A stretch of DNA of 64,000 bases from Candidatus Methylomirabilales bacterium. GTDB lineage: Bacteria; Methylomirabilota; Methylomirabilia; Methylomirabilales; CSP1-5. Position numbers and translations under genes: made by a program. Below are positions 59,126 to 62,393 of this stretch, piece after piece. Positions within the stretch are counted from its first letter, which is position 1; every line of letters starts with the position of its first letter. The notes beneath the pieces were generated by a model, which saw only the letters and a list, made by a program, of their open reading frames with translations, was not told where the DNA came from and did no database searches. The DNA is taken from assembly GCA_046758505.1 (NCBI GenBank), contig JBHIAH010000001.1:83898-147897 (forward strand), written 5' to 3'.

Positions 59126-60097
59126 GTGAAGGCCTTGGTCACGGGCGCGACCGGGTTCATCGGCAGCCACCTCGTGGAGTACCTGTTGCAGCGGGGAGAC
59201 GATGTCACCTGTCTCGCCCGGAGCCGAAGCCGCCTCCGGTGGCTGAAAGGTTTACAGGTCAGGGTCGTCGAGGGAGACTGCACGGATCCTGCCCTGGGGG
59301 GGCGCCTTGTTGAGGACTTTGACTGGGTCTTTCATCTGGCTGGGCTCACCAAGACCCTGGAGCGCAACGAGTATTACCGGGTTAACGGGAAGGGGACGGC
59401 CAACCTGGGCACGATCCTGGCCCAGAAGAGACGACCACCCCGGCTGGTGTACCTGAGCAGTCTGGCAGCGGCCGGGCCCAGCACGGACGGACATCCGTTG
59501 CGGGAATCTGACCCCCCCCAGCCGGTAAGTCATTACGGCCGGAGCAAGCTGGAGGGGGAGAACGGGCTGACACGACTCGGGGCCGGGATTCCCTGGACCA
59601 TTGTCCGGGCACCGGTGATTTATGGTCCCCGGGACCGCGACCTCTTGGTCTTCTTTCAGCTGGCCAAACGGCGGGTGGCGTTTCGCCTGGGGAGGAGACA
59701 GGCCTTCAGCCTCTGTTATGTGGAGGACTTGGTACGCGGCCTGCATTTGGCAGCCGAGCGGGGAGGGACCGGAGAGATATACTACCTCGCAGAGGCCTCT
59801 CCCCGGTCCTGGGACGAGATATCGGAGGCCATTGGGGCGGCCGTGGGGGTCCGGCCAATGACGGTTCCCCTCCCTCGTCCCCTCCTGGCCGGCGCCGCGT
59901 GGGTTTCGGAGGGGATGGCGCGCCTCACGGGAATTCGACCGCTCCTCAACCGAGACAAGGCCCGGGAAATGCAGCAGCAATACTGGATATGCAATCCGGG
60001 CAAGGCCGCACGGGATTTAGGCTTCGCCACCTCCATCCCCCTACGCACGGGAACGGCACGGGTGGCGAAGTGGTATGAGCGTCACGGCTGGCTCTAA
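59126..60097 (+). CDS. NAD-dependent epimerase/dehydratase-family reductase (CerR-like by context)
   Basis: MKALVTGATGFIGSHL Rossmann motif and YGRSK catalytic motif. Lies immediately upstream of the alpha-oxoamine synthase. Confidence 0.8.
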   Translation: MKALVTGATGFIGSHLVEYLLQRGDDVTCLARSRSRLRWLKGLQVRVVEGDCTDPALGGRLVEDFDWVFHLAGLTKTLERNEYYRVNGKGTANLGTILAQKRRPPRLVYLSSLAAAGPSTDGHPLRESDPPQPVSHYGRSKLEGENGLTRLGAGIPWTIVRAPVIYGPRDRDLLVFFQLAKRRVAFRLGRRQAFSLCYVEDLVRGLHLAAERGGTGEIYYLAEASPRSWDEISEAIGAAVGVRPMTVPLPRPLLAGAAWVSEGMARLTGIRPLLNRDKAREMQQQYWICNPGKAARDLGFATSIPLRTGTARVAKWYERHGWL

Positions 60098-60108
60098 AGG
60101 AGGAGGGC

Positions 60109-61287
60109 ATGGACATTTTCGATAAATGTTACACCTATACCGACGCGAAGAAGGTCATGGCGGCCGGCTTCTATCGGTACTTCCAGGAGATCCGATCGGC
60201 CCAAGACCCGGAGGTCGTCGTGGATGGGCGACGGATGATCATGGTGGGATCCAACAATTACCTGGGACTGACATCTCACCCGCGTATCCGGGAGGCGGCG
60301 ATCCGCGCGGTCGAAAAATACGGCACCGGATGCGCCGGGTCGCGGTTCCTCAACGGAACCCTGGATCTCCACCACGAGGTAGAAGCCCGGCTGGCCAAGT
60401 TCAAGAAGAAAGAGGCAGCCCTCCTCTTTTCCGCAGGGTATCAGACCAACCTCGGAGTCATTGCTGCCCTCGTCGGCAAGGATGACGTGGTCATCATCGA
60501 CCGGTGGAACCACGCCAGCATCATCGACGGCTGCCGCCTTGCCTTTGGCCAGACCCTGAAGTATCGGCATAACGACATGGAAGACCTCGAGCGAATCCTG
60601 GCCTCTCAGGCAGATAAAGGAAAGCTGCTTGTGGTGGATGGGGTCTTCAGCATGGAGGGAGATATTGCCAAGCTCCCGGAAATCGTGCGACTTGCCCGAA
60701 AATATGGAGCCCGAATCATGGTGGATGACGCCCACGCCACCGGCGTGCTCGGCAAGGATGGGAGGGGGACCGCAGAACACTTCGGCCTCGAGAACGAAGT
60801 GGACATCGTCATGGGGACGTGCAGTAAGGCACTGGCCTCGCTGGGGGGCTTCATCGCATCGAGCCATGACGTGATCCACTACGTCAAGCACAACGCCCGG
60901 TCAATGATGTTCAGTGCCTCCCTCCCGCCCGCCTGCGTGGCCACCATCCGGGCCGCCCTGGAAGTCATCGAGGAAGAGCCCGAACGGCGGGCGCAACTGT
61001 GGAAGAATGCCGAACGCGTCCGGGAGGGCCTTCAGGAGATGGGTTTCGACACCGGCCTCAGTGAAACGCCGGTCATCCCCGTGGTCTTTGGTGATGAGCA
61101 GCAGGCCTTCCAAATGGGGCGCGGACTCTATGAGCAGGCGATTTTCGCCAATGTGAGTGTGAGCCCTGCGGTTCCCGAGGGAAGGGGTCTTATCCGGACG
61201 AGCTATATGGCCACCCATACGGACGCCCACATCGACCGGATCCTGGAGGCCTTTCGGATTGCCGGGAGGGATCTCGGAGTGATCTGA
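60109..61287 (+). CDS. spt: Alpha-oxoamine synthase, serine-palmitoyltransferase-like
   Basis: VGSNNYLGL, GSRFLNGT, DDAHATGV, and PLP-Lys context GTCSKALASLGG. I cannot distinguish Spt from BioF or Kbl by eye; the call leans on neighbours. Confidence 0.7.
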   Translation: MDIFDKCYTYTDAKKVMAAGFYRYFQEIRSAQDPEVVVDGRRMIMVGSNNYLGLTSHPRIREAAIRAVEKYGTGCAGSRFLNGTLDLHHEVEARLAKFKKKEAALLFSAGYQTNLGVIAALVGKDDVVIIDRWNHASIIDGCRLAFGQTLKYRHNDMEDLERILASQADKGKLLVVDGVFSMEGDIAKLPEIVRLARKYGARIMVDDAHATGVLGKDGRGTAEHFGLENEVDIVMGTCSKALASLGGFIASSHDVIHYVKHNARSMMFSASLPPACVATIRAALEVIEEEPERRAQLWKNAERVREGLQEMGFDTGLSETPVIPVVFGDEQQAFQMGRGLYEQAIFANVSVSPAVPEGRGLIRTSYMATHTDAHIDRILEAFRIAGRDLGVI

Positions 61288-61289
61288 CC

Positions 61290-62393
61290 GTGGAGGTCTT
61301 CCCCGTCGTCACCGATCGAGATCTCCACGCCTTCCTCCACCTACCATGGCGTATCTACCGGGGCGATCCCCACTGGGTTCCCCCCCTCCTCCTCGAACAG
61401 CGCCAACTCCTTACGCGTCAACACCCCTTTTTTGAAAAAGCCGAGATCCGCCTGTTCCTGGCCAGGGAAGGGGGGGAGGTCGTCGGCCGTATCGCCGCCA
61501 TTGTGGACCACCACTTCCTTGAATCGCATCACGAGCCGGTCGCTTTCTTCGGGTTTTTCGAATGCCTCAACGACAGGTCCGCTACGCGGGAGCTTTTCGG
61601 CGCGGTCCAGGAATTCCTGCGCGGGAAAGGCATGCAGGCAATCCGCGGACCGGTCAACCCCTCCATGCACGATCCCTGCGGCCTCTTGATCGACGGCTTC
61701 GAGTCCGCACCCGTCTTCCTGATGCCCTATAACCCTCCCACCTACTCGGATCTCCTGGAGGAAGTCGGTTGCCGAAAGGTGAAGGACCTCCTGGCGTACA
61801 CTCTCCGGATCTGGACCGACCCACCCCCCAAGGTGCTCCGATCGGCCGAGGAGGCCCGGCGAAGGGGTATTCAAGTTCGGCAAATAGACTTGAAGCGCCT
61901 GGGAGACGAAGTCCGAATCATCTGCGAACTCTACAATACCGCCTGGCAGAACAACTGGGGTTTCACCCCGATGACCCAGGCAGAAGCCGAATGGATGGCA
62001 AAAAATTTGAGACTCCTGATCGTGCCTTCCCTCACCCTGATCGCCGAGGCGGAAGGGAATCCTATCGGCTTTCTGATGCTCCTGCCCGATTACAACCAGG
62101 CGGTGCGACATCTCAACGGTCGTCTGGGACCCCTCGGCTTCCTCAAGTTCCTCTGGTACCGTCGTCGGATCCGCGACGTCCGCCTCCTCCTCCTGGGCAT
62201 GCGACCCGCGTACCGAGGCAAGGGAGTGGATTCACTCCTCAACCTCACCGCCTTTCAGGCCCTCAAGCAAAAAGGCTATATCCAGGCGGAGATCTCTTGG
62301 ATCCTGGAGGACAACTGGGTCGTCCTTCGGATGGCGGAACGTCTCGGCGGGGCCCTCTACAAACGATACCGGATCTACGAACTGCCTGTATGA
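61290..62393 (+). CDS. GNAT-fold N-acyltransferase (bacterial ceramide-synthase-like by context)
   Basis: About 367 aa. C-terminal acyl-CoA-binding-type motif MRPAYRGKGVDSLL. GTG start lies 3 nt after the upstream stop. Confidence 0.55.
   Translation: MEVFPVVTDRDLHAFLHLPWRIYRGDPHWVPPLLLEQRQLLTRQHPFFEKAEIRLFLAREGGEVVGRIAAIVDHHFLESHHEPVAFFGFFECLNDRSATRELFGAVQEFLRGKGMQAIRGPVNPSMHDPCGLLIDGFESAPVFLMPYNPPTYSDLLEEVGCRKVKDLLAYTLRIWTDPPPKVLRSAEEARRRGIQVRQIDLKRLGDEVRIICELYNTAWQNNWGFTPMTQAEAEWMAKNLRLLIVPSLTLIAEAEGNPIGFLMLLPDYNQAVRHLNGRLGPLGFLKFLWYRRRIRDVRLLLLGMRPAYRGKGVDSLLNLTAFQALKQKGYIQAEISWILEDNWVVLRMAERLGGALYKRYRIYELPV

Follow-up and report, generated by a model that had tools for sequence, protein, structure and literature searches.

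Three tightly packed genes in a metagenome-assembled genome (MAG) of Candidatus Methylomirabilales, an order within the phylum Methylomirabilota, probably form an operon for the de novo synthesis of (dihydro)ceramide, to which the product of an adjacent PAP2 gene would then probably add a head group. We put the probability of this reading at about 0.8. The genes lie at positions 59126-62393 of the stretch that was analysed (hereafter the window; 64,000 nucleotides, positions 83,898 to 147,897 of contig JBHIAH010000001.1). The reading is directly supported by the family homology of all four proteins, the catalytic residues of the serine palmitoyltransferase (Spt) and of the PAP2 protein, and the linkage of the genes across phyla; from these we infer the substrates, which of acylation and reduction comes first, the nature of the head group and the actual production of the lipid. 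An earlier note on this DNA, made from the sequence alone, had described three tightly packed, co-directional open reading frames (ORFs) with gaps of 11 and 2 nt and had taken them for a ceramide-synthesis cluster, and the ORF map reproduced the coordinates exactly. The four genes are as follows.

59126-60097, + strand: extended short-chain dehydrogenase/reductase (SDR), CerR-like, 323 aa, GTG start, from the ORF map
60109-61287, + strand: predicted Spt of the Bacteroidota/Sphingobacterium type, 392 aa, ATG start, from the ORF map
61290-62393, + strand: predicted tandem-GNAT N-acyltransferase of the bCerS/YghO family, 367 aa, GTG start, from the ORF map
62647-63522, - strand: PAP2_3 polytopic membrane protein, convergent, resembling Aur1/inositolphosphorylceramide (IPC) synthases, from Pfam and fold

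Pfam assigned the first three products to Epimerase (122.6 bits), Aminotran_1_2 (211.8 bits) and Acetyltransf_1 (39.6 bits, residues 211-353), respectively. The Spt gene is preceded by a strong Shine-Dalgarno sequence, AGGAGGAGG, and its stop codon lies two bases before the GTG start of the GNAT gene, a spacing that fits translational coupling within one operon. The convergent PAP2 gene follows the GNAT gene at a distance of 253 nt.

Among NCBIfam models the synthase scored highest with NF047600, the Bacteroidota-type (CFB) Spt (548 bits), compared with 453 bits for the BioF/Kbl subfamily, 430 for Kbl and 422 for BioF; the alphaproteobacterial Spt model gave 350 bits. Its top match in the PDB was the Spt of Sphingobacterium multivorum (SmSpt; 3a2b/8guh, 434 bits), followed by Thermus BioF/Kbl (327 bits), sphingomonad Spts (307-315 bits), Kbl (~282 bits), cysteate acyltransferases (249-282 bits), BioF (~218 bits) and 5-aminolevulinate (ALA) synthases (~177-185 bits). 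An Spt, and neither BioF nor Kbl, thus gave the best score in both searches, in line with the Spt-like character that had been claimed for the protein. It shares ~53% identity with SmSpt (3A2B, 8GUH; PMC10196870) over 371 aligned columns, including the same 'VSPAVP' loop; both belong to the soluble homodimer type and have no acyl carrier protein (ACP) partner gene. Unlike SmSpt, however, the window enzyme is encoded in an operon with bCerS-like and CerR-like genes.

Comparison of active sites pointed in the same direction. We took the set of 18 SmSpt active-site residues from PMC10196870 and found 17 of them identical in the synthase, the exception being F114, which is a tyrosine here as in Sphingomonas Spt. 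K240, H135, D206 and H209 align with SmSpt K244, H138, D210 and H213, and with K265, H159, D231 and H234 of the S. paucimobilis-type enzyme. Furthermore, G77-S78, S239 and A270 correspond to SmSpt G80-S81, S243 and A274, so that the protein is Spt-like at all four positions; all of them differ in Kbl and in Thermus BioF/Kbl, and S243 and A274 differ in BioF as well. The network that holds the serine hydroxyl and carboxyl groups in SmSpt (N52, G80, S81, S243, H138 and M271) is identical throughout, and Y27 and F83, from the lining of the SmSpt acyl-chain site, are kept. A neighbour-joining tree of 64 sequences (numpy implementation, Kimura distances, 500 bootstraps) placed the synthase inside the Spt clade, among GNAT-linked synthases including SmSpt and in a group with two other Methylomirabilales-type sequences (97% bootstrap). 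A BioF/Kbl identity was rejected on the lower scores and on the residues that differ at SmSpt positions 80/81, 243 and 274. Neither biotin genes nor threonine-degradation (tdh) genes, the neighbours that would have spoken for such an identity, were found beside the synthase. We regard 60109-61287 as a supported serine palmitoyltransferase, predicted from its sequence to condense serine with a long-chain acyl thioester. The cluster contains neither a dedicated ACP gene nor one for an acyl-ACP synthetase; acyl-CoA is therefore the probable acyl substrate, and the rhodobacterial acyl-AcpR route (PMC9386255) would not apply.

The product of the third gene is homologous over its full length to acyltransferases of known sphingolipid loci. 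In plasmid and chromid records, tblastn retrieved full-length homologues from S. parapaucimobilis, E. coli (yghO), Roseomonas and Streptomyces. Identity was 33% both to the S. parapaucimobilis 'aca' homologue (E = 2e-69, residues 6-364) and to E. coli YghO (E = 7e-58). PMC9386255 lists yghO (ECD_02850) and DRN02_007910 as 'aca' homologues of Caulobacter CC_1154, and PMC11324152 and PMC9393093 identify CC_1154/CCNA_01212 as cerS/bcerS. Taken together, the full-length homology to YghO and the Sphingomonas 'aca' protein and the listing of CC_1154 place the third ORF in the bCerS family by transitivity. The kinship to bCerS that had been proposed for the GNAT protein accordingly stood, carried by the proteins of the Sphingomonas, E. 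coli and Streptomyces loci. Searches of NCBIfam and of PDB sequences with the protein returned no significant match. The family is large, with 7,387 proteins at E ≤ 0.001 among 8,000 candidates scored, and 60 positions are invariant among 17 diverse members.

An AlphaFold2 model of the protein (predicted local distance difference test, pLDDT, 84) showed a tandem GNAT fold, for which the top matches were 5kf1 (glucosamine N-acetyltransferase), 2wpw (a tandem GNAT of clavulanate biosynthesis), 7q3a/MAB_4324 and the mycothiol synthase MshD. Catalysis in tandem GNATs such as MshD resides in the C-terminal domain. Both the Pfam match and the invariant R309/G312 and E334-x-S-W-x-L-E-D-N motifs fall in the C-terminal GNAT domain, which probably carries out N-acylation. 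We consider the assignment of 61290-62393 to the bCerS family supported, and ceramide synthase activity is predicted on the basis of homology. One loop of the model, residues 124-144 (window 61659-61721), is the sole part with pLDDT below 50 and contains the invariant residues S125, L133, G136 and P141; it may be a mobile element that touches the lipid substrate or the membrane.

The first gene encodes an extended SDR whose motifs, read from the translation (G7-A-T-G-F-I-G13, S111/S112 and Y137-G-R-S-K141), align with those of the Sphingomonas homologue. It is 42% identical to the SDR of the Streptomyces cluster (E = 4e-60) and shows 30% identity, along its whole length, with the CerR homologue next to acpR-spt in Sphingomonas (E = 7e-30). 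The protein was also scored with a hidden Markov model (HMM) built from 51 SDRs beside GNAT-linked synthases, the window protein itself being excluded. With few negative controls, this HMM gave the window SDR 391 bits, inside the training range of 333-468 bits, while the Streptomyces, E. coli and Sphingomonas cluster SDRs reached 284, 215 and 209.5 bits and other SDR ORFs in the loci at most 139 bits. The top NCBIfam match was HpnA (140 bits, far under its cut-off), which is also the top match for the cluster SDRs of Sphingomonas, E. coli and Streptomyces. According to PMC9386255, epi ECD_02852 and DRN02_007875 are homologues of Caulobacter CC_1164, which is cerR in PMC11324152 and PMC9393093. 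The epimerase-family reductase had been called CerR-like beforehand, and its grouping with the spt-linked SDRs equated with CC_1164 bears this out. The case for the CerR subfamily is good, if weaker than those for Spt and the GNAT protein, and the enzyme is predicted to be an NAD(P)H-dependent 3-keto reductase acting on 3-ketosphinganine or on oxidised ceramide.

The association of the three genes recurs in distant genomes. We scanned GTDB species genomes with the GNAT alignment and selected the 80 closest loci of at least 600 matching stretches. Linkage was counted in the 47 loci flanked on each side by 4 kb or more, and upstream order in the 73 loci with at least 1.5 kb upstream. The GNAT relatives came from more than 15 phyla, and the loci included Nitrospirota, Binatia, Zixibacteria, WOR-3, Latescibacterota, Bacteroidota (among them Balneolaceae and Ignavibacteria), Gemmatimonadota, Planctomycetota, Spirochaetes, Acidobacteriota, Eisenbacteria, Myxococcales and a second Methylomirabilales species. 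The linkage counts were as follows.

Alpha-oxoamine synthase (AOS) gene within 3 kb of the GNAT gene: 39 of 47 loci
SDR gene within 6 kb of the GNAT gene: 35 of 47 loci
GNAT, AOS and SDR genes, all three: 34 of 47 loci
PAP2 homologue within 3 kb of the GNAT gene: 12 of 47 loci

In 43 of 73 loci the AOS gene immediately precedes the GNAT gene and shares its strand, so their pairing is not due to chance. The order SDR-Spt-GNAT was seen again in Nitrospirota, Binatia and Methylomirabilales; elsewhere the SDR gene is divergent or downstream. In the 73%-identical relative L090, genes for a crotonyl-CoA carboxylase/reductase (CCR), SDR, Spt and GNAT protein are followed by a convergent PAP2 gene, a CBS protein gene and a methyltransferase gene, and the convergent position of PAP2 is shared by L016, L035, L090 and L091.

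Three loci from the plasmid and chromid records link the family to recognised Spt enzymes or to additional genes. In S. parapaucimobilis the order is SDR, ACP, Spt, sensor kinase, lptF, lptG, desaturase and acyltransferase, with the acyltransferase gene five genes from spt, and the Spt there exceeds the NCBI Spt cut-off (833 > 670). The neighbours of E. coli yghO (L084, NZ_MG591698.1, a plasmid-labelled record, 1343-9122) encode a fatty-acyl-AMP ligase, an epimerase-family SDR, an ACP, an Spt that is also above the NCBI cut-off (600 > 500) and LptF/LptG paralogues; this Caulobacter-type gene set has already been described for E. coli B (PMC9386255). A plasmid of Streptomyces sp. NBC_01001 (L083, 6763-11289) carries synthase, GNAT and SDR genes and then a stand-alone condensation-domain gene, which suggests an extra acyl or peptidyl modification of the product.

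According to PMC9393093, PMC11324152 and PMC11087976, which cite Olea-Ozuna 2021 and Stankeviciute 2022, the Caulobacter crescentus pathway consists of Spt (CC_1162/CCNA_01220), bCerS (CC_1154/CCNA_01212) and CerR (CC_1164/CCNA_01222). The window cluster shares its families (a pyridoxal-phosphate-dependent AOS, an acyl-CoA N-acyltransferase of ~370 aa and an extended SDR), as traced through the Sphingomonas and E. coli homologues. On the other hand, it lacks genes for AcpR, AasR and LptF2/LptG2, its Spt is of the Bacteroidota type, and its genes are contiguous, whereas Caulobacter bCerS stands roughly eight genes away from spt. A periplasmic location and an NDUFA9-like character have been reported for Caulobacter CerR (PMC11087976), while the window SDR begins directly with its Rossmann motif. 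The three genes lie apart from one another in the Bacteroidota that produce sphingolipids (PMC11334938).

The PAP2 protein next door had been described as of the sphingomyelin synthase (SMS) type. The adjacent PAP2 gene is indeed there, but its fold proved nearer to IPC synthase (Aur1) than to SMS. Pfam gave 77.3 bits for PAP2_3 and 30.4 bits for PAP2_C, the sphingomyelin-synthase C-terminal family. The motifs P216-S217-G-H219-T220 and R256-x-H258-Y259-x-x-D262 are invariant among 20 homologues, and close homologues are common in NC10 and Nitrospirota. With the predicted model (pLDDT 81), Foldseek found two PDB fold matches at E ≤ 0.001, both of them IPC synthases: 9vj4_A, solved with ceramide (E = 3.5e-5, template modelling (TM) score 0.61/0.64), and the Aur1 structure 9ivc_A (E = 1.6e-4). 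Both align over the full length (TM 0.61-0.64) and share the SGH and HxxxD motifs with the window protein, although identity to these Aur1/IPC synthases (9IVC, 9VJ4) is just 17-18%. Lower matches were PgpB (TM 0.43) and SMSr (TM 0.39). A PDB sequence search with the protein found no match to solved sphingolipid synthases, and the model of the Bacteroides phosphoinositol-dihydroceramide synthase, NF052609, matched weakly (22 bits, cut-off 480). Given its IPC-synthase-like fold, the PAP2 protein probably puts a phospho-head group on ceramide, and we regard 62647-63522 as a probable phosphosphingolipid head-group transferase on the strength of the model.

The window also contains, at 45851-48515 (+), a fused NTP-transferase/CDP-alcohol phosphatidyltransferase gene followed by a PfkB-family kinase gene. 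The top model for the former was NF041135, a bifunctional inositol-1-phosphate cytidylyltransferase/CDP-inositol transferase (279 bits, cut-off 580), and the two genes occupy the sole low-GC stretch of the window (0.506, 46-48 kb). The CDP-inositol-type gene hints at inositol-phosphate chemistry with a possible tie to the PAP2 head group; since such a bifunctional enzyme is encoded in the window, the head group could be phosphoinositol. A broader proposal, which we advance only tentatively, is that Methylomirabilales make phosphosphingolipids through a four-gene module of CerR-like, Spt, bCerS-like and Aur1-like PAP2 proteins shared with Nitrospirota and some Acidobacteriota, possibly with phosphoinositol as the head group.

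In the pathway that we propose, Spt would condense L-serine with a long-chain acyl thioester, probably acyl-CoA, to give 3-ketosphinganine. The tandem-GNAT protein would N-acylate the long-chain base from acyl-CoA, probably by means of its C-terminal domain, and the extended SDR would reduce the 3-keto group with NAD(P)H. The PAP2 protein would then probably move a phospho-alcohol onto ceramide from a glycerophospholipid donor and so form a phosphosphingolipid.

Several observations weigh against ceramide synthesis as the function of the cluster. The 548 bits of the synthase fall below the 640-bit equivalog cut-off of NF047600, and it is also under the cut-offs of both proteobacterial Spt models. 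As the Spt models are lineage-specific, such a score limits the naming of the protein and not its homology. In the tree, bootstrap support was moderate (65%, 325 of 500 replicates) for the separation of all Spt-type synthases from BioF, Kbl, Thermus BioF/Kbl and one paralogue. The link to the validated Caulobacter bCerS and CerR is indirect, running through the Sphingomonas and E. coli homologues, and the SDR is just 30% identical to the Sphingomonas CerR homologue. Moreover, the Sphingomonas SDR matches NDUFA9 chains at 32-39 bits, whereas for the window SDR the 60 top-ranked of 100 PDB matches include none to NDUFA9.

The sub-cut-off score of the synthase leaves some room for a sphingolipid-like product with another amino-acid head, for example a 1-deoxy(dihydro)ceramide made with alanine or a base that derives from glycine, which would involve the same chemistry with a different synthase preference. 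SmSpt itself accepts alanine and glycine at low efficiency (PMC10196870), and 1-deoxysphingolipids are abundant in anoxic water, where they have been ascribed to Spt-like enzymes (PMC11334938). The window synthase, however, matches SmSpt at every one of the six serine-contact residues named above, and we consider a different amino-acid preference unlikely.

Less probable still is a cluster for sulfonolipids of the capnine or sulfobacin type. The synthase would then act as a cysteate-C-fatty-acyltransferase, with a reductase and an N-acyltransferase as the subsequent enzymes. A reductase and an N-acylation step are likewise required in the CapB/CapC sulfonolipid pathway, and the cysteate acyltransferases 28eh and 7u7h match the synthase significantly (282 and 249 bits). 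These matches are nevertheless 150-185 bits under that to SmSpt, the GNAT homologues are located in ceramide loci, and no cysteate synthase was found among the annotated genes of the window, an annotation that did not cover every ORF.

The alaremycin cluster includes an N-acetyltransferase and an oxidoreductase. This cluster starts with almA (PMC12006855), and the Streptomyces homologue of the window cluster has its extra condensation-domain gene, but a small soluble metabolite made by an alaremycin-like combination of AOS, N-acetyltransferase and oxidoreductase is the least probable product of all, because long-chain Spt matches the synthase much better than ALA synthases do (434 versus ~177-185 bits), because the synthase retains Y27 and F83 of the SmSpt acyl-chain site and is encoded beside an integral-membrane protein resembling ceramide head-group transferases, and because in Proteobacteria the GNAT family adjoins LptF/G paralogues.

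The enzyme trio is that of a bacterial ceramide pathway already in the literature, as is the broad distribution of the pathway among genomes. From Black Sea MAGs, Ding et al. 2024 (PMC11334938) inferred the three enzymes Spt, bCerS and CerR in 38-40 phyla and noted that their genes are often neighbours; the pathway had earlier been traced to 9 phyla (Stankeviciute 2022, as cited in PMC11334938). The 80 loci match the pattern of their 'clade B' clusters, in which Spt-like synthases stand beside bCerS and CerR homologues in many phyla new to sphingolipids, although a linked PAP2 gene is undescribed there. Methylomirabilota are unnamed in the main text and accessible supplements of that study, and the searchable literature contained no report tying Methylomirabilales to sphingolipids or sphingolipid genes. 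The suggestion of the earlier note that the cluster would extend the distribution of sphingolipids may thus still hold for this lineage, but the novelty is smaller than supposed, given the 38-40 phyla already inferred. Our additions are modest: the lineage, the compact ACP-free layout and the recurrent Aur1-like PAP2 partner.

Methylomirabilales (phylum NC10) carry out nitrite-dependent anaerobic methane oxidation, and their lipid biomarkers, methylated fatty acids and hopanoids, serve as tracers of this process in sediments. If the predicted lipids are made, sphingolipids would be added to the membrane repertoire of the order. If they are phosphosphingolipids, the locus would encode an Aur1-type ceramide head-group transferase from a bacterium that does not belong to Bacteroidota, and the order would gain a new class of lipid biomarker. 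Since the SDR-Spt-GNAT(-PAP2) module has no ACP partner, it offers a convenient minimal set for heterologous reconstitution, which could help decide between acylation-first and reduction-first routes. The linked PAP2 gene is likewise a candidate for the head-group step in many environmental phyla.

Two further features lie immediately upstream of the cluster.

57912-58994, - strand: M28 peptidase gene, divergent, from the ORF map
58995-59125, no strand: intergenic region between the M28 peptidase gene and the first cluster gene, from the ORF map and sequence

By its position, 58995-59125 is the presumed promoter region of the operon. A sigma-70 consensus scan of this region detected no promoter-like site, and promoter and terminator consensus scans around the operon gave none above shuffled expectation. 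The Rfam scan of the window returned two tRNAs only, with no riboswitch or leader near the cluster. Just upstream, a gene at 56444-57790 (+) encodes a CCR homologue (TIGR01751, 535 bits, above cut-off). At the equivalent position, L090 has a zinc alcohol dehydrogenase-family gene (6239-7489, 416 aa), and the M28 peptidase gene is absent there.

Other genes of the window touch on lipid metabolism. The neutral ceramidase noted previously is present and complete at 16796-18841 (+), 40 kb from the cluster (in Pfam, Ceramidase_alk at 576 bits and the C-terminal domain at 180 bits; in NCBIfam, the neutral ceramidase model at 536 bits, under its cut-off of 1200); as a neutral/alkaline ceramidase, it could serve the turnover of the organism's own ceramide or the scavenging of foreign sphingolipids. 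A secreted START protein had also been reported. The product of 55484-56212 (+) is indeed START-like, matching the STAR-related lipid transfer protein 3qsz (E = 1.6e-12) with weak SRPBCC matches in Pfam, but its secretion was deduced from a hydrophobic N-terminus alone; among the 80 related loci, the gene was not linked to the cluster. At the window edge, 174-2663 (+) encodes an AMP-binding/phosphopantetheine-carrier/PlsC-acyltransferase protein that is Aas-like (acyl-ACP synthetase/lysophospholipid acyltransferase) and whose 5' end may be truncated.

Between the ceramidase gene and the gene for an NAD-dependent DNA ligase lies an ORF of 745 aa (18890-21127, -) that has no Pfam or NCBIfam match and is either a novel protein or a spurious ORF in GC-rich DNA. 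Finally, a stretch of ~5.6 kb (49630-55290), from a 263-aa ORF to a tRNA-Glu, holds just ORFs shorter than 200 aa, one of which looks by eye like a BON-domain lipoprotein, and a tRNA-Lys at 50587-50662.

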